Of a stretch of 64,000 bases of DNA, positions 19,183 through 27,940 are shown one piece after another. Position 1 is the first letter of the stretch, and every line of letters starts with the position of its first letter. The position numbers and the translations under genes are program-made. The stretch lies in NCBI GenBank assembly GCA_045587165.1, contig JAZNBT010000020.1, forward strand, positions 20,603-84,602. Reading direction: 5' to 3'. The notes below the pieces were generated by a model. The model did no database searches, was not told the origin of the DNA, and worked only from the letters and a program-made list of their open reading frames with translations. Origin of the DNA: Alphaproteobacteria bacterium. Its GTDB lineage: Bacteria; Pseudomonadota; Alphaproteobacteria; CAAGCB01; CAG-977.

Positions 19183-19211
19183 TTGACATGTTAAAAATAA
19201 TATGACATATT
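19183..19211 (+). promoter_or_regulatory. Candidate promoter at the head of the phage-like module, with direct repeat TGACAT(N)TTGTTAA
   Basis: TTGACA (19183-88) - 17 nt - CATATT. A TGACATGTTAA / TGACATATTGTTAA direct repeat could be an operator. Confidence 0.3.
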
Positions 19212-19240
19212 GTTAATACACTTGATGTCGTGTCTTTGAA

Positions 19241-19270
19241 AAGCGTTTCCGTGCGGGAGCGCTTTTTTTA
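19241..19270 (+). terminator. Leader hairpin plus U-tract (attenuator-like) between the candidate promoter and the first phage-like gene
   Basis: 9-bp stem agcgtttcc / gggagcgct with loop gtgc, followed by TTTTTTT. The first gene ATG is 13 nt downstream (19283). Confidence 0.45.
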
Positions 19271-19282
19271 TATCAAAAGGAG

Positions 19283-19612
19283 ATGAAAATGGGTTTTGGA
19301 AAAAGTTTAAAAAAGATAGGGAAAAGTATTGTTTCAGCGGCTACAGATCCCAAAAATTTAATTAATCCTTTATTTTCCGTCACTGAATTGGGAAACGGGC
19401 TTTATGACGATTATAAACAGTCCGTTCAGGCCGATAAAGACAAAGAAGTCGCACGGCAACAGGCGGAAATTGAAGCTTCAAATAAAGAGTTTCAAGATGA
19501 TTTGGATAGGAAAAGACGCAATTCAAAAAGATCGAATCTTATCTTTGCCGGCGTGTTGAAAGGACGCGGAGCCATAGGTTTGGGCGGTCAGAAAAATTTG
19601 TTGGGGTTGTAA
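19283..19612 (+). CDS. Phage-module hypothetical protein
   Basis: 109 aa, charged. Its stop abuts the portal start. Confidence 0.55.
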   Translation: MKMGFGKSLKKIGKSIVSAATDPKNLINPLFSVTELGNGLYDDYKQSVQADKDKEVARQQAEIEASNKEFQDDLDRKRRNSKRSNLIFAGVLKGRGAIGLGGQKNLLGL

Positions 19613-19614
19613 GA

Positions 19615-21108
19615 ATGTCTGATTCGTATTCTTTGGCAGATAAAATTATCCGAAAAACGGATGAATTAAAATCCAAACGAGTTAATTTTGAAAGGCTGTG
19701 GCAGGAAATATCGGAGCTGGTTCTGCCTCGAAAAGCGGATTTTACGGTCAGGCAGAAAGTCGGTGCCGTTCGTACAAGAAAATTATTTGAAACGACGGCC
19801 GTTAATGCCGCCGAAATTTTAGCGGCGGGATTGCACGGTCTGATGACAAATTCAGCCGGAAAATGGTTTTCCCTGTCCGTTCCGAAATATAAAGACATGC
19901 CTGAAATTTCTGATTGGCTTGTTCAAGCGGAACAAATTATTGCGGATGAAATCATACGACCGAGCGCCGGTTTTGCAACGAATATTCATGAAGTATATTT
20001 GGATTTGGCCGTTTTGGGGACAGCCGGATTGTATGTCGGTTGGAATGAAGAAAAGCAGGGATTGTTTTTTCAGTCGCGTTTTTTGGGAGAGTTGTTCTTG
20101 GAAGAAAATGCGGTTGGACAAATCGATCAGGTCTACCGTGTTTTTAAAATGTCTTTGGATAAAATCGTTCGGACATGGGGAGAAGATGTTTTGCCCGAAA
20201 AAATAAGGGCCGTTTTCAAAACCGGAAATCAAACGGAACGGGAATATGAAATCATTCACGCCGTTTTCCCGAATGTTTTATATGAAAACGGCAGTGTTTT
20301 TCAAAAACCGATCAGTTCGGTATATGTTTTAAAAGAAGAAAAAACATTGCTGTTTTCCGGCGGTTTTGAGGAAATGCCTTTGTTTGTCGCGCGTTGGAGT
20401 AAAGCGTGTACCGAAATATACGGCCGTTCTCCAGCCGCGGCCGTGCTGCCGGATATAAAAATGATTCAGGAAATGATGAAAGAAACGATTATTGCCGCTC
20501 AGTTGGCCAATCGTCCGCCGCTTTTGGTCAGAGATGACGATCAGTTCTCTCCGGCGGCAACGGTGCCGGGCGGTATTATCCGTTATACCGGTGAAGCGCC
20601 GAAAGCTTTTATCGGCGGGGCTAATTCAAGCATCGGCTTGGAAATCATGAATGAAATCAGAAACAGAATCAAAACGGCGTTTTACAATGACCGATTGATC
20701 GGTGTCGATAATGTGCGGATGACTGCGACCGAAGTTTTGCAAAGAACGGAAGAAAAAATGCGTTTGTTGGGACCTGTGTTCGGTCGTTTGCAGACAGGGC
20801 TGTTGGGACCGATGATGAATCGGATTTTTGGATTGTTGGTACGGCACGGCAGAATGTCTTTACCGTCCGGAATTTCTTTTTCCGATGTCAGAATCGAATA
20901 TGTGTCCCCGTTGTCTTTGGCGCAAAGGCATTTGCAAGCCAGAGCCGTTATGCAGACGTTGGAATTGGCGGAGGAATTTTTAAAAATTCAGCCTGAAGCC
21001 GCAAATGTGTTCAATGTTCCGGAAGCGATCAGAAAAATCGGCGAAATGTACGGTGTCAGCGCTGCTTTGTTTAATGTCGGGGGTGAAGAAAAAATAAATG
21101 ACGGATGA
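19615..21108 (+). CDS. Phage portal / head-to-tail connector protein, podovirus (T7 gp8-like) type
   Basis: 497 aa. Size and position upstream of the scaffold and capsid genes, with acidic helical content typical of portals. Confidence 0.6.
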   Translation: MSDSYSLADKIIRKTDELKSKRVNFERLWQEISELVLPRKADFTVRQKVGAVRTRKLFETTAVNAAEILAAGLHGLMTNSAGKWFSLSVPKYKDMPEISDWLVQAEQIIADEIIRPSAGFATNIHEVYLDLAVLGTAGLYVGWNEEKQGLFFQSRFLGELFLEENAVGQIDQVYRVFKMSLDKIVRTWGEDVLPEKIRAVFKTGNQTEREYEIIHAVFPNVLYENGSVFQKPISSVYVLKEEKTLLFSGGFEEMPLFVARWSKACTEIYGRSPAAAVLPDIKMIQEMMKETIIAAQLANRPPLLVRDDDQFSPAATVPGGIIRYTGEAPKAFIGGANSSIGLEIMNEIRNRIKTAFYNDRLIGVDNVRMTATEVLQRTEEKMRLLGPVFGRLQTGLLGPMMNRIFGLLVRHGRMSLPSGISFSDVRIEYVSPLSLAQRHLQARAVMQTLELAEEFLKIQPEAANVFNVPEAIRKIGEMYGVSAALFNVGGEEKINDG

Positions 21109-21391
21109 GGTTAAAAAAAGAAAAATCGGCAAGGCGCTGAGTTTGGTTCAAGCTTATAAAGCTGTTTTTTTATCTGAAAACGGGCAGATCGTTTTACGGG
21201 ATTTGGCCGATAAATGTCATATGCTGTCTCCGGTAACGGATGTGTCGAATCCGAACGGGTTTTCCGCCGCAAGTGCTTTTTACGACGGGAAACGGGCAGC
21301 TTTTCTGGACATTGTGAAAATGTCCGCTTGCGATGAGCAAAAGCTTGTCGCGTTATTGCAAGAAACTGAAAGGAATAAAAATGAATTATGA
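21098..21391 (+). CDS. Phage-module hypothetical protein
   Basis: 97 aa. The start overlaps the portal stop (ATGA coupling). Confidence 0.45.
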   Translation: MTDEVKKRKIGKALSLVQAYKAVFLSENGQIVLRDLADKCHMLSPVTDVSNPNGFSAASAFYDGKRAAFLDIVKMSACDEQKLVALLQETERNKNEL

Positions 21392-26612: not shown

Positions 26613-26625
26613 AAGGAAAAAAATA

Positions 26626-26841
26626 ATGATTTGGGAAAATATTGTTTTATTTTTTGAACAGACCGTTTTTTGGTTTGGAACGATTGTCGGAGCCGCTTCG
26701 ATTATTGTGAAAGCAACGCCGTCACAGAAGGATGATGCTTTTTTGGCAAAAATAATCAAAGTGTTGGAGCTTGTTTCCATCGTGAATGCAAAGATTCAGG
26801 AAAACAAGGCAACGCCGCAAAAAGAACAAAATAATGACTGA
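26626..26841 (+). CDS. Small membrane protein of the lysis cassette (second holin or antiholin candidate)
   Basis: 71 aa with an N-terminal TM segment (FWFGTIVGAASIIV) and a charged tail. Confidence 0.4.
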   Translation: MIWENIVLFFEQTVFWFGTIVGAASIIVKATPSQKDDAFLAKIIKVLELVSIVNAKIQENKATPQKEQNND

Positions 26842-27040
26842 AACAACGGGTTTTGTTTGTATCGCAATAACATTGCCGATTTTATTGTTGTCGTTCTTTA
26901 CATATAAATTCGGCAGAACACGGGAAAGAATAGAATATGAACAGAAAAAATCAAAAATGTTGGCGCATATTCGTTATTTACGTTATCGGTTGGATGATGT
27001 TGATGTCATTAAACGCCTGCACGACAGGTTTAAACGGTGA
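26834..27040 (+). CDS. Putative i-spanin (Rz-like)
   Basis: N-terminal TM segment (FVCIAITLPILLLSFF) followed by a charged coiled-coil. The o-spanin ORF overlaps its 3' end in another frame. Confidence 0.45.
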   Translation: MTETTGFVCIAITLPILLLSFFTYKFGRTRERIEYEQKKSKMLAHIRYLRYRLDDVDVIKRLHDRFKR

Positions 27041-27146
27041 TTTTTGCGATATTTATTTGCCGGTGTTTCCCGATTATGAAAAAGATACGCCGGAAACAAT
27101 CCGGCAGATTGATAAAAACAATATTGTTTATCAGGAATGTTTATAG
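26937..27146 (+). CDS. Putative o-spanin (Rz1-like outer-membrane lipoprotein)
   Basis: Lipoprotein signal with lipobox (MMLMSLNAC) and a short mature peptide with Cys and Pro residues. Overlaps the i-spanin gene out of frame. Confidence 0.45.
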   Translation: MNRKNQKCWRIFVIYVIGWMMLMSLNACTTGLNGDFCDIYLPVFPDYEKDTPETIRQIDKNNIVYQECL

Positions 27147-27149
27147 AGA

Positions 27150-27178
27150 AACAGCCCGTTTAACGGGCTGTTTTTTTA
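27150..27178. terminator. Bidirectional intrinsic terminator between the lysis cassette and the convergent Sel1 gene
   Basis: Hairpin acagcccgtt-taa-cgggctgt with flanking A-run and T-run. Confidence 0.7.
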
Positions 27179-27940
27179 TCAATAAAAGCTCCGTTCTTCT
27201 TTTTTCCCTTCGGTATTTTCCTGCATTTCGGATCTGTCACGACGGCGTCTGGGTCTTTCTTCTTCGAAGCCCGCATCTTTTCCCTTTTCTTTAGTCCCCT
27301 TTTTATTCTTTGCCTGTTGCTCGCGTATCAAAGCTTCAATCAGAGGATTGTCAATGGTCGTTTTTTCTTCCCCTTGGACTTCGTATTGAGAAATGTTCAC
27401 TCCGAATTTTTGATATTCCTCTGCAATTGACGCTTCCATTCTGTCTAAATCCGCTTGCTGGCGTTGGTTAAACAGTTCGATTAATTGCAAAGTGCTTTGA
27501 ATCATCGGGTTGGCTTGAGAGATTTCATCAATGGTCATGCGTGCTTCTAACTTGTTTCGAAACGGTATGGCATCAGGATTACTCAACAAAACGGCAGTCT
27601 GATACCATTTGTATGCAAAAATGTTGCTTTGACTGACACCGTTGCCATGTTCATATAATTTCCCCAATTCCAACTGAGACGGAGTATGATTTCTCATCGA
27701 CGCAGAAGTAAAACAGTCCGCCGCCGCCGTATATGCATCGTCATTTGCGTCACTCAACAATAACATGCCGCGTTCATATAAAGCCTCCGGATCCGTCATT
27801 TTGGCACATACGGCGCTGGCGTTAAGATATTTTGCCAACATTTTTTCCTGTCCGCCTTCCGAAGTCTGAAAGGCTGTTTGCGCACAAACGCTGCCCGTCG
27901 CTATAAAAAAGAACAAAAAAGTAAGAAATGCCTTGATCAT
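27179..27940 (-). CDS. Secreted Sel1-repeat protein with a highly charged C-terminal tail
   Basis: Signal peptide MIKAFLTFLFFFIATGSVCAQ. Sel1/TPR-like repeats (GKLYEHGNGVSQSNIFAYKWY). The C-terminus is KKGTKEKGKD...RRRRDRSE. Confidence 0.7.
   Translation of the reverse strand: MIKAFLTFLFFFIATGSVCAQTAFQTSEGGQEKMLAKYLNASAVCAKMTDPEALYERGMLLLSDANDDAYTAAADCFTSASMRNHTPSQLELGKLYEHGNGVSQSNIFAYKWYQTAVLLSNPDAIPFRNKLEARMTIDEISQANPMIQSTLQLIELFNQRQQADLDRMEASIAEEYQKFGVNISQYEVQGEEKTTIDNPLIEALIREQQAKNKKGTKEKGKDAGFEEERPRRRRDRSEMQENTEGKKEERSFY

Follow-up and report, generated by a model that had tools for sequence, protein, structure and literature searches.

A block of podovirus-like virion and lysis genes lying among housekeeping genes of an alphaproteobacterial chromosome raises the question of whether it is a prophage remnant, part of a larger prophage, or a system that the host has domesticated. 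A sequence-only reading of the window (the whole 64-kb stretch of DNA analyzed here) had offered two answers: a decayed T7-like prophage, which our results reject, and a domesticated, GTA-like particle with programmed lysis, which they support. The module seems to represent a new type of particle system resembling gene transfer agents.

Gene content and limits of the module

The module comprises 13 intact genes, one promoter, and a leader terminator at 19183–27146 on the + strand (19172–27146 including the upstream promoter element). All phage genes listed in the sequence-only reading are present, intact, and on this one strand; missing from that list was the gp7.3-like gene 5′ of the portal gene. 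The features are, in order:

19172–19211, +: promoter with upstream element AACAAAATGTG, −35 TTGACA (19183–19188), A/T-rich 17-nt spacer, and −10 CATATT (19206–19211)
19238–19269, +: leader intrinsic terminator, placed after the promoter and ahead of the first RBS (13-bp stem, GUGC loop, U7)
19283–19612, +: gp7.3-like small virion/adsorption protein, 109 aa (phrog_1320, weak match, E 8e-4)
19615–21108, +: portal, 497 aa (PF12236, E 2.5e-113; PDB 8CK0_A portal, 3e-47)
21098–21391, +: Bbp19-like small protein, 97 aa (PF25181, E 8e-14)
21333–21947, +: scaffold (phrog_3742, 1e-20; phrog_458)
21973–21998, +: intrinsic terminator 3′ of the scaffold gene (21973–21991 in the sequence scan)
22026–22925, +: major capsid, 299 aa (PF19821, E 8.8e-81)
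22935–22972, +: intrinsic terminator 3′ of the capsid gene (22935–22965 in the sequence scan)
22989–23546, +: tail adaptor (tail tubular protein A, T7 gp11-like), 185 aa (phrog_394, 1e-56; PDB 8CK1_E ‘Connector Protein’, 1e-17)
23546–25549, +: tail nozzle (tail tubular protein B, T7 gp12-like), 667 aa (phrog_376, 3e-190; PDB 8CK1_A ‘Tail Nozzle’, 2e-84)
25562–25972, +: small internal virion protein, 136 aa (phrog_418 ‘internal virion protein’)
25993–26157, +: holin-like membrane protein, 54 aa (hydrophobic translation)
26154–26612, +: GH24 endolysin, 152 aa from ATG 26154 (PF00959, E 2.8e-39; phrog_7)
26626–26841, +: second small TM protein, 71 aa (phrog_9685, 6e-9)
26786–27040, +: i-spanin (translation)
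26937–27146, +: o-spanin, a 69-aa lipoprotein whose gene overlaps that of the i-spanin (lipobox LNAC; phrog_1275 ‘Rz-like spanin’, weak match, E 0.0018)

Family matches bear out the portal, scaffold, capsid, gp11-like, and gp12-like proteins recognized earlier, and the gp13-sized protein noted after the nozzle is the 136-aa protein, whose phrog_418 family was matched by 11 of 11 tested orthologues (best E 2e-10). A PDB search with this protein gave no relative; it occupies the place of BcepC6B gp13. The orthologue-conserved start of the gp7.3-like gene is ATG 19289 (107 aa), and the equivalent phage gene matches phrog_1320 (‘host range and adsorption protein’) just as weakly. This gene lies directly 5′ of the portal gene in all loci, and the Bbp19-like gene is also kept in all of them. 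The scaffold gene likely starts at 21381 (188 aa, as in relatives), and its C-terminal 120 aa share 29–33% identity with the phage scaffold.

The full lysis cassette described from the sequence (holin, GH24 endolysin, TM protein, and overlapping spanins) is also present. The holin-like protein had no family match in Pfam and PHROG searches; its gene stop overlaps the endolysin start, and its orthologues share 78–96% identity in closer relatives and 51–55% in the L019 group. The 71-aa TM protein, whose gene is kept in most loci, is possibly an antiholin or lysis regulator. The i-spanin, which gave no family match, likely starts at 26834; the resulting 68-aa protein carries a TM segment at its N terminus, and relatives have a 68-aa gene called at the corresponding position.

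The earlier description as T7-like, in T7 gene order, holds for the portal-to-nozzle block only, whereas the nearest phages are of the BPP-1/BcepC6B/HTVC010P type. The nozzle shares 35–39% identity with tubular protein B of HTVC010P-type pelagiphages and BcepC6B and, judged by such sequence affinities, the ancestor is a podovirus of this type and not a member of the Autographiviridae. Identity between the module capsid and those of resident full prophages in these bacteria is 65–73%.

Housekeeping genes fill the 19 kb upstream (including ATP synthase F0, DciA, and tgt) and the 37 kb downstream (including Sel1, DsbD, MurL/MurD, RecR, DnaX, and Fab genes), and relatives show the same flanks. A tblastn comparison of seven related full-phage loci, taking all their ORFs, with the window gave matches for portal-to-nozzle ORFs only. 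Together with family scans of the other ORFs, this search found no terminase, core protein, fibre, integrase, or polymerase in the 64 kb, a repeat scan found no att-like repeats, and no replication gene or pac feature was found for the module in the window. These results uphold the earlier view that nothing else phage-like is visible in the window and that both flanks (tgt; Sel1/DsbD) are ordinary chromosomal genes.

Conservation and descent in relatives

The module is present in 24 species-level (representative) gut/rumen alphaproteobacterial MAGs. Synteny between tgt and dsbD, which the sequence-only reading had proposed to compare, is widely kept: in the majority of copies, DciA-tgt and Sel1-DsbD flank the module. 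In three lineages it occupies other sites (glycosyltransferase/module/trigger factor; SecA/PpiC/module/SDR), and its limits, the gp7.3-like gene at one end and the spanins at the other, are the same in every locus. Nearly all of the 24 genomes keep the 13 genes intact. In capsid and portal NJ trees the module copies form one clade, sister to the resident prophages, and, across genome pairs, module genes and tgt diverge in step at nonsynonymous sites (r = 0.80–0.85).

For the long module genes, dS is saturated (0.8 to >2) even in comparison to the closest relatives. Between the window and four compared relatives, dN/dS is 0.04–0.06 for the capsid (median over all pairs 0.08; about equal to tgt), 0.06–0.14 for the portal (0.06–0.16 overall), 0.05–0.12 for the adaptor, 0.07–0.11 for the nozzle, and 0.05–0.22 for the holin, with 0.08 for the endolysin versus the closest relatives; the values for the comparison genes are 0.03–0.06 (tgt) and 0.11–0.16 (DsbD). 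Codon usage, another check suggested earlier, is host-like (RSCU r = 0.91; comparing one half of the host genes with the other gives 0.93). Based on synteny in 24 genomes, monophyly, tgt-tracking divergence, purifying selection with saturated dS, and host-like codons, the module appears domesticated. The pattern is that of a single capture in an ancestor of these uncultured gut and rumen Alphaproteobacteria, followed by vertical inheritance within the clade.

Promoter cassettes and dispersed loci

The module promoter is the top sigma70-like site within 18900–27500 (10 of 12 matches), and its −35 hexamer begins at 19183, where the sequence-only reading had placed the start of the module. It is close to consensus, leads straight into the leader terminator, and is nearly identical in 24 of 24 genomes, also where the module sits elsewhere in the chromosome. 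The leader terminator folds at −23.4 kcal/mol (z = −5.1, RNAfold), and an alignment of 16 loci gave nine predicted pairs, seven with compensatory double changes (RNAalifold). Both terminators reported after the scaffold and capsid genes were found, with positions kept in nearly all relatives: all 20 module loci that have a short spacer show a post-scaffold hairpin and T-run, and the post-capsid position is kept in most loci with differing stem sequences.

The absence of terminase and fibre genes from the module holds for the window, but relatives keep TerL and fibre genes at separate single-gene loci. Approximately 30 clusters of 432–441-aa TerL proteins (72–76% identity to phage TerL) were found on long chromosomal contigs with housekeeping neighbors throughout. 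These orphan TerL genes show a dN/dS of 0.03–0.13 and keep the Walker A motif. The module and an orphan TerL occur together, on different contigs, in four related MAGs (GCA_900768185.1, GCA_017616015.1, GCA_963604715.1, and GCA_900768845.1). A T7-type fibre N-domain gene is solitary at four loci (L046, L048, L131, and L132), lies within the module at L028, and at L039 encodes a PF03906 N-domain protein that, with a Phage_tail_APC chaperone, adjoins TerL. Many fibre genes encode just 116–244 aa, consisting of the N-terminal tail-binding domain and a short or frameshifted tail, which makes receptor binding, and hence delivery to recipient cells, doubtful in those lineages. Two lineages have longer genes (296 and ~250 aa), one followed by a tail-assembly chaperone gene, and the fibre N-domains are under purifying selection (dN/dS 0.15–0.23). 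Putative metallopeptidase/effector-like DUF6782 genes recur beside loci of the system.

The orphan TerL and fibre genes each have their own copy of the cassette found at the module, composed of TTGAC(A/T), 15–17 nt, a CATAAT-like hexamer, a leader intrinsic terminator, and an RBS. In ~0.93 Mb of fetched DNA, the cassette profile matched solely module, TerL, and fibre loci. Because TerL and fibre genes stand behind the same cassette in relatives, the window appears to hold one locus of a dispersed system, and domestication as a multi-locus particle-plus-lysis system is very probable. Related full phages have a like promoter-leader-terminator build 5′ of TerL or the late operon; however, spacer and initial transcribed sequences differ between the domesticated cassettes and phage late promoters, which argues for a different regulator specificity. 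The shared cassettes point to a dispersed regulon switched by antitermination, with a hypothetical antiterminator. As an alternative, the two terminators that follow the scaffold and capsid genes may simply adjust protein ratios.

Proposed function and alternatives

We consider it likely that the module is the main operon of a domesticated podovirus within a dispersed, GTA-like particle-plus-lysis system. A trans-acting factor would let RNA polymerase pass the terminators by processive antitermination, and all dispersed units would then be switched on together in a subset of cells. Such read-through would resemble that of lambda Q and of GafZ, which controls the Caulobacter GTA (CcGTA) by antitermination and has a binding element between −35 and −10 (PMC11150451). 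Procapsids would form on the portal with scaffold and be filled by the orphan TerL with DNA, probably that of the host since no TerS or pac site is known; adaptor, nozzle, and fibre N-domains would close the portal, and lysis of the producer by holin, endolysin, and spanins would set the particles free. Gene transfer agent is the most likely role on this evidence; we infer DNA packaging and transfer, and put the chance that gene transfer is the actual function at about even. The earlier statement that podovirus-derived GTA-like elements are undescribed is outdated, given the two-locus, podovirus-like, GTA-like FpGTA of Faecalibacterium (PMC12946183); we found no like element in Alphaproteobacteria in the literature searched.

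Among the host loci examined, none encodes a small terminase, a capsid cement protein, or ejection/core proteins homologous to the 217-, 431-, and 1309-aa phage proteins, which extends the reported lack of gp14–16-type core proteins beyond the window. No candidate regulator was found in the host loci. Related full phages encode a 134-aa early protein, without a homologue in host loci, for which five of six homologues match DUF6456 (best E 9e-4, below the Pfam threshold), a GafA-family domain (PMC9638019).

The ejection proteins, cement protein, and fibre C-terminus absent from the host loci are exactly what a helper phage encodes, and related full prophages in five of the 24 module MAGs (once on the same contig, ~33 kb apart) leave room for helper-phage interplay. 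The module could parasitize related podophages lysogenizing the same bacteria, much like a satellite, or defend against them by abortive infection: an incoming or induced phage would supply the antiterminator, and perhaps the missing core, cement, and fibre proteins, while the module redirects assembly to its own capsids, or else poisons it and triggers lysis too early. The similar build of the phage late operon, and a lysis cassette on a late-type promoter, would fit. We nevertheless regard this explanation as unlikely, given the lack of integrase, replication gene, att, or pac features, the fixed chromosomal position and vertical inheritance over saturated dS, the system's own TerL under purifying selection, and the differing cassette spacer and initial transcribed sequences. 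In addition, 19 of the 24 MAGs (which are incomplete) showed no related prophage in a capsid scan, and the portal, adaptor, and nozzle share merely 36–54% identity with those of the related phage, so mixed assembly is not obviously favored.

Somewhat less probable is selection for a non-transfer function, such as regulated autolysis releasing capsid-protected or free DNA (biofilm, nutrition) or cytoplasmic proteins, with capsids as a side product. The fully conserved lysis cassette agrees with this idea, as do the recurring DUF6782 genes and the possible impairment of adsorption or injection by shortened fibres and a missing ejectosome. However, lysis alone would not hold portal, capsid, adaptor, nozzle, and TerL at a dN/dS of 0.03–0.16, and fibre N-domains remain under selection, with longer fibre genes in two lineages.

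A plain decaying T7-like prophage remnant, fixed by chance near tgt, would explain the missing terminase, core, fibre, integrase, and replication genes and the relative L024, in which the nozzle gene is split and genes have been inserted. It is very improbable: intact genes and a dN/dS of 0.04–0.2 at saturated dS rule out a decayed prophage with frameshifted genes, the promoter and structured leader are conserved, the limits stay the same even at different chromosomal sites, and tgt-correlated divergence argues against recent horizontal spread as the source of this conservation. Least credible of all is an ordinary complete prophage with its remaining genes just outside the block, which has the phage origin of the genes in its favor and nothing beyond, and which is refuted for the window by the tblastn result and by housekeeping flanks that are the same in relatives.

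The head-nozzle-lysis operon and its chromosomal setting

The module consists of 13 tightly packed ORFs, all on the + strand (window 19183-27146), and encodes a phage head, a short, non-contractile tail (adaptor and nozzle) and a lysis cassette. Every gene listed by the sequence-only reading was present as written according to family, PHROG and PDB searches, as were the intrinsic terminators directly 3' of the scaffold gene and of the capsid gene, and the gene assignments bear out the T7 order of portal, scaffold, capsid, tubular A and tubular B.

Promoter, leader and genes of the module, with the evidence for each assignment
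19183-19188, +, -35 hexamer of the conserved promoter
19206-19211, +, -10 hexamer of the conserved promoter
19238-19269, +, leader hairpin and U-run, intrinsic terminator
19283/19289-19612, +, gp7.3-like small protein, 109/107 aa (phrog_1320, weak)
19615-21108, +, portal (PF12236, E 2.5e-113)
21098-21391, +, Bbp19-like protein (PF25181)
21333/21381-21947, +, scaffold (phrog_3742)
22026-22925, +, major capsid protein (PF19821, E 8.8e-81)
22989-23546, +, tail adaptor (phrog_394; PDB 8CK1_E)
23546-25549, +, nozzle (phrog_376, E 3e-190; PDB 8CK1_A, 2e-84)
25562-25972, +, 136-aa internal virion protein (phrog_418, matched by 11/11 orthologues tested)
25993-26157, +, holin-like protein, 54 aa (translation)
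26154-26612, +, GH24 endolysin (PF00959)
26626-26841, +, second TM protein (phrog_9685)
26786-27146, +, overlapping i- and o-spanins (translation; family searches)

The 136-aa protein had no PDB match when searched as an 11-sequence profile and no tblastn match in isolated phages.

Family scans showed that both flanks are housekeeping regions: osmoregulated glucan synthesis, P-type ATPase, TolC-like, thioredoxin-like, DciA and tgt genes and an ATP synthase F0 with alphaproteobacterial b/b' subunits upstream, and Sel1 proteins, DsbD, MurL/MurD, RecR, DnaX, Fab genes and others downstream. When all ORFs of seven related full-phage loci were compared with the 64-kb window by tblastn, only portal-to-nozzle matches were returned; a terminase, core or fibre gene concealed in the window is thereby ruled out. 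Neither an integrase nor replication genes were found in the window, family scans and tblastn found no single-subunit phage RNA polymerase there, and a repeat scan for att-like direct repeats around the module returned only short, low-identity or terminator-tail repeats. The full-phage tblastn, family scans and repeat scan thus uphold the view that nothing else in the window is phage-like. Four ORFs of the window lack a family match. One (8843-11353, +) encodes an 836-aa soluble protein without Pfam or NCBIfam match and is located upstream of a TolC-like gene, where the GC skew is as strongly positive as in the module; the other three lie at 59655-60683, 60680-62392 and 62453-63454.

Distribution, descent and selection

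Capsid relatives number in the thousands, and those 77-93% identical to the capsid of the window are encoded in the same compact module. An exact-sequence look-up of the portal of the window returned no record. A scan of a single genome for each GTDB species gave 29 capsid-bearing loci, every one of them from uncultured Alphaproteobacteria of gut or rumen, including UBA6324, UBA6411, HGM167xx MAGs, RGIG MAGs, 'Acetobacter sp. CAG:977' and 'Rhodospirillaceae UMGS1296'. The compact module occupies 24/29 loci, and its synteny is kept among these 24 species-level genomes; the remaining 5/29 hold a full prophage of a related podovirus. Synteny comparison showed that the module is usually kept between tgt and Sel1/DsbD, in the order tgt, (DUF6782), gp7.3-like gene through spanins, Sel1, DsbD. 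Three divergent lineages carry it elsewhere, flanked by a glycosyltransferase gene and trigger factor, or by SecA/PpiC on one side and an SDR gene on the other; the relocated copies have unchanged boundaries, but extra genes have been inserted. A capsid profile search of IMG/VR returned environmental phages at ≤55% identity only, and neither the module nor its close prophage relatives.

Module ORFs are full length in nearly all genomes compared, and dS of the long module genes has already reached 0.8-2.6 against the closest relatives, i.e., saturation. Against four compared relatives, dN/dS is 0.04-0.06 for the capsid (median 0.08 over all pairs), 0.06-0.14 for the portal, 0.05-0.12 for the adaptor, 0.07-0.11 for the nozzle and 0.05-0.22 for the holin; in comparisons with the closest relatives, the endolysin gave 0.08. 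Values for the flanking host genes were 0.03-0.06 (tgt) and 0.11-0.16 (DsbD). The module genes and tgt show correlated pairwise nonsynonymous distances (r = 0.80-0.85; DciA vs tgt, r = 0.87), and the capsid evolves at the rate of tgt. In NJ trees of capsid and portal, one clade holds all module copies, including the relocated ones, with the resident prophages as its sister, and module codon usage could not be distinguished from that of the host. The module therefore comprises phage-derived structural genes that are fixed in the chromosome, vertically inherited and under purifying selection. Taken together, the intact ORFs, low dN/dS with saturated dS, correlation with tgt, single clade and host-like codons fit one old capture followed by vertical descent under selection. 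A functional or recently decayed prophage, the latter having been suggested as a decayed T7-like prophage, is rejected: integrase and att repeats are lacking, the flanks are housekeeping genes, and the ORFs are intact and under purifying selection.

Several lineage-specific features accompany the module. The 'Acetobacter sp. CAG:977' lineage has two insertions: a histidine kinase gene (HisKA + HATPase_c) between the scaffold and capsid genes and, between the capsid and adaptor genes, a 441-aa ORF without known family (module locus L024: 8424-9875 and 10985-12310; also L038: 10970-12292). The L024 nozzle gene is in two pieces through a frameshift or an assembly error. Genes for putative DUF6782 metallopeptidases (PF20573; weak M91 effector-like match) repeatedly adjoin loci of the system (e.g., L001:6046-7137, L039:16652-18457, L046:3201-4154). 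Most genomes have one between tgt and the module promoter, the window being without one (19018-19283); two tandem copies lie 4 kb downstream of a TerL-fibre pair, and another is convergent with a solitary fibre gene. These genes do not carry the promoter cassette described below, and full-text literature searches returned nothing on DUF6782.

Solitary terminase and fibre genes and a common promoter-terminator cassette

The TerL of a related phage has ~30 clusters of 432-441-aa homologues (72-76% identical) on long contigs, and TerL was solitary among housekeeping genes in 5/5 loci looked up. In one context it stands between the mraZ/dcw cluster with a ybaK-like gene and RND efflux genes, and in another between citrate synthase and Fic genes and a TPP enzyme gene. 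Four of these five loci belong to NCBI MAGs (GCA_900768185.1, GCA_017616015.1, GCA_963604715.1 and GCA_900768845.1) that have the module on a separate contig. The Walker A motif is retained in the orphan TerL genes, whose dN/dS is 0.03-0.13. Next after TerL in one MAG come genes for a 296-aa protein that has the T7 tail-fibre N-terminal domain (PF03906) and for a tail-fibre assembly chaperone; one other genome has the fibre gene within the module, 3' of the 136-aa gene, and in the remaining cases it lies alone among host genes. Many fibre genes encode just 116-244 aa, with the N-domain kept (dN/dS 0.15-0.23) and the C-terminus short or frameshifted. Ejection/core proteins, cement protein and TerS turned up in none of the host loci fetched. 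The description of the module as lacking terminase and fibre genes thus holds for the window but probably not for the system, since relatives hold solitary copies of both elsewhere. The system is not self-propagating: replication and integration genes are absent from the window, and TerL and fibre genes lie on other contigs in relatives.

Two of the solitary fibre-stub genes (L131:7001-7447 and L132:7001-7531) border a variable polysaccharide-biosynthesis region, which has undergone rearrangement between these otherwise syntenic contigs; their C-termini differ and look frameshifted.

Ahead of every module we found the same arrangement: AACAAAATGTG, TTGACA, 17 nt, CATATT, GTTAATACAC..., a GC-rich hairpin with a U-run, an RBS and the start codon. 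Compensatory changes at 7/9 pairs of the leader hairpin were observed across 16 loci. The orphan TerL and fibre genes each have their own copy of this cassette, in the form TTGAC(A/T), a 15-17 nt A/T-rich spacer, a (C/A)A(T/A)AAT-like hexamer, GTGAT..., a hairpin with a T-run, and an RBS. In ~0.93 Mb of fetched sequence, a cassette profile matched module, TerL and fibre loci only, with one match in the window; the profile was trained on those same sites, so that only the specificity of its matches is informative. Related full phages have the same promoter-leader-terminator layout ahead of TerL, and their spacers differ in sequence. In 18900-27500, an Rfam scan gave no family near its gathering score, so the leader belongs to no known class of riboswitch or RNA element. 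One motif, GCTTTTTTTATAT(C/T)AAA, occurs both in the tail of the leader terminator (window 19263-19278) and in that of the post-scaffold terminator (21990-22007); a duplicated terminator module or a shared constraint may explain it.

A near-consensus promoter running into a terminator, with two further conserved terminators inside the operon, is by analogy the layout of late operons under processive antitermination, of which lambda Q is the classic example. As in the lambda PR'-tR'-Q arrangement, a strong, constitutive-looking promoter and then a terminator precede morphogenesis and lysis genes, whereas no Q gene was found here and there is no demonstrated pause site. In CcGTA, the processive antiterminator GafZ loads onto an element located between -35 and -10 and overrides terminators within the cluster (PMC11150451), the same logic as the promoter/terminator layout of the module. 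The presence of the cassette at three kinds of locus implies a common regulator, itself not found in the loci fetched. A Pfam search for antiterminators among early proteins of a related phage gave only a sub-threshold match to DUF6456, the GafA-family domain (PMC9638019). This 134-aa early protein of related phages is the only regulator lead, and a search with its profile yielded no homologue, either in the window or among the fetched host loci.

Comparison with phages and gene transfer agents

The gene order of the module is that of BPP-1/BcepC6B/HTVC010P-type podoviruses and of the related prophages (L004-L009, L029-L033): TerL, small protein, portal, Bbp19/20-like, scaffold, capsid, tubular A, tubular B, small internal protein, and lysis genes last. 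Capsid and TerL share 65-74% identity with their counterparts in the resident prophages, and the nozzle shares 35-39% with its counterparts in isolated phages; the nearest phages are HTVC010P-type pelagiphages, BcepC6B/BPP-1 and Liberibacter prophages. The five full prophages carry primase, TerL, gp7.3-like, portal, Bbp19-like, scaffold, capsid, adaptor, nozzle and fibre genes, together with a 139-aa protein at the BPP-1 cement-gene position and internal proteins of 217, 431 and 1309 aa. Primase is the only replication gene identified in 20-kb stretches of related prophages. Compared to these podoviruses, the module has lost replication genes, TerS, cement protein and large internal/ejection proteins, and at this locus also TerL and fibre; it has no visible integrase and is chromosomally fixed, not a self-propagating virus. 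Relative to BcepC6B, it is a late region minus TerS/TerL, cement, gp14-17 and fibre, in which the lysis genes directly follow the gp13-sized gene.

The earlier label 'T7-like' holds for the order of the structural block (gp7.3, gp8 portal, gp9 scaffold, gp10 capsid, gp11, gp12, gp13-sized protein), and further likenesses are the PF12236 portal, the post-capsid terminator and, in relatives, the PF03906 fibre N-domain. It does not hold for the nearest phages, which are of BPP-1/BcepC6B/HTVC010P type, or for transcription: neither a phage RNA polymerase nor T7-type promoters were found with the module, which has sigma70-type promoters instead. Unlike in T7, the terminase gene of related phages precedes the portal gene, there is a Bbp19-like gene, and the capsid belongs to PF19821. 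An Autographiviridae prophage is dismissed on the same grounds, namely the lack of a phage RNA polymerase in the window and the sigma70-type operon promoter.

As a kind of system, the module groups with GTAs/viriforms. RcGTA-type elements have siphovirus-like ancestry and an HK97-type head-tail cluster, with the terminase within the main cluster. RcGTA and CcGTA resemble the module in having domesticated, vertically inherited structural genes under purifying selection and accessory genes elsewhere, and the lysis cassette of the module would provide a counterpart to their lysis-dependent release; their structural genes are not homologous to those of the module. No GafA/GafYZ homologue was identified here, the sole link being the sub-threshold DUF6456 match in related phages. 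The statement that podovirus-derived GTAs are undescribed has been overtaken by FpGTA of Faecalibacterium prausnitzii, an experimentally supported, podovirus-like, GTA-like two-locus element (PMC12946183, Nat Commun 2026). FpGTA shares with our system, as read here from its genes, short-tailed-phage genes, a gut bacterium as host, unlinked operons and, presumably, release by lysis, and in both the lysis genes (holin and endolysin in FpGTA) sit inside a structural operon (PMC12946183). However, its host is a Firmicute and its phage ancestry is unrelated. FpGTA locus I combines TerS and TerL with portal, scaffold and capsid, whereas TerL is solitary here; its lysis genes go with fibre and baseplate genes, whereas here they go with head and nozzle genes and the fibre gene is solitary (PMC12946183). 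FpGTA is documented by particles, ~9-kb packaged DNA and proteomics (PMC12946183), whereas the present system is known from sequence. Full-text literature searches returned no description of this alphaproteobacterial element.

We consider the module, TerL and fibre loci to be very probably a domesticated, multi-locus particle-plus-lysis system. We infer from the sequence that a common putative antiterminator would switch on the module, TerL and fibre units together, that TerL would fill module-encoded capsids with (host) DNA, that adaptor, nozzle and fibre N-domains would close the filled capsids, and that the lysis cassette would free particles that could serve as a gene transfer agent. Truncated fibres and the lack of identified ejection proteins weigh against efficient DNA delivery in some lineages, and for these reasons gene transfer as the function is, on sequence evidence, an evenly balanced proposition. 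DNA delivery, if it takes place, may proceed without a phage ejectosome. By a slight preference, we read the system as a new GTA family of mammalian-gut/rumen Alphaproteobacteria, in which separate domestication of a BPP-1/HTVC010P-type podovirus produced a dispersed, cassette-gated regulon (head-nozzle-lysis operon, solitary TerL gene, solitary fibre-stub gene) yielding DNA-filled short-tailed particles. The domestication is independent and from a different phage lineage, and the architecture is unusual in its solitary terminase, solitary fibre stub and cassette-linked regulon.

The main rival, a less probable one, is that the system depends on related co-resident prophages as helpers or defends against them. 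Related prophages do share five MAGs with the module, but the module is fixed vertically, the system has its own TerL, and its promoter spacers are distinct from those of the phage. A phage satellite (PICI/cf-PICI/P4-like) is not supported: cf-PICIs likewise have an incomplete capsid-gene set resident in the chromosome, whereas the module loci examined have no integrase, repressor, replication module or att site and show a fixed site with vertical inheritance. The tailocin and encapsulin-like readings were dropped, given the conservation of portal, TerL, adaptor and nozzle and the lack of a contractile tail; a tail-only tailocin is also at odds with the conserved portal, scaffold and capsid genes.

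In MAG HGM16788, the module (L023, 196049-216951) and a complete related prophage (L033, 162371-183258) lie ~13-33 kb apart on CAAGEP010000003.1; four other MAGs hold both elements on different contigs.

To our knowledge, few GTA lineages of independent origin have been described, and nearly all knowledge comes from the siphovirus-like RcGTA family. The first podovirus-like, GTA-like case was FpGTA, from a Firmicute, in 2026 (PMC12946183). If the GTA reading is true, the present system would be the first GTA family to descend from a T7-type structural module, and also the first whose terminase forms a separate single-gene locus. As a second, unrelated podovirus domestication, it would show that short-tailed-phage capture is recurrent in gut microbiomes, that the packaging motor is separable from the head genes yet kept in one regulon through a portable promoter/terminator cassette, and that antitermination is perhaps a general route to all-or-none lethal particle production. 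With fibres frequently cut down to the tail-binding domain and ejection proteins apparently lacking, the question arises of how, or whether, the particles deliver DNA. The cassette, the module and the orphan TerL provide sequence markers for finding further parts of the system and for detecting alphaproteobacterial DNA packaged in GTA fashion in gut/rumen viromes. Three alphaproteobacterial module or orphan-TerL contigs (L020, L045 [GCA_963604715.1] and L035) are filed under a 'Limosilactobacillus gorillae' bin and an 'Eubacteriales' MAG, and look like mis-binned contigs or mislabelled bins.
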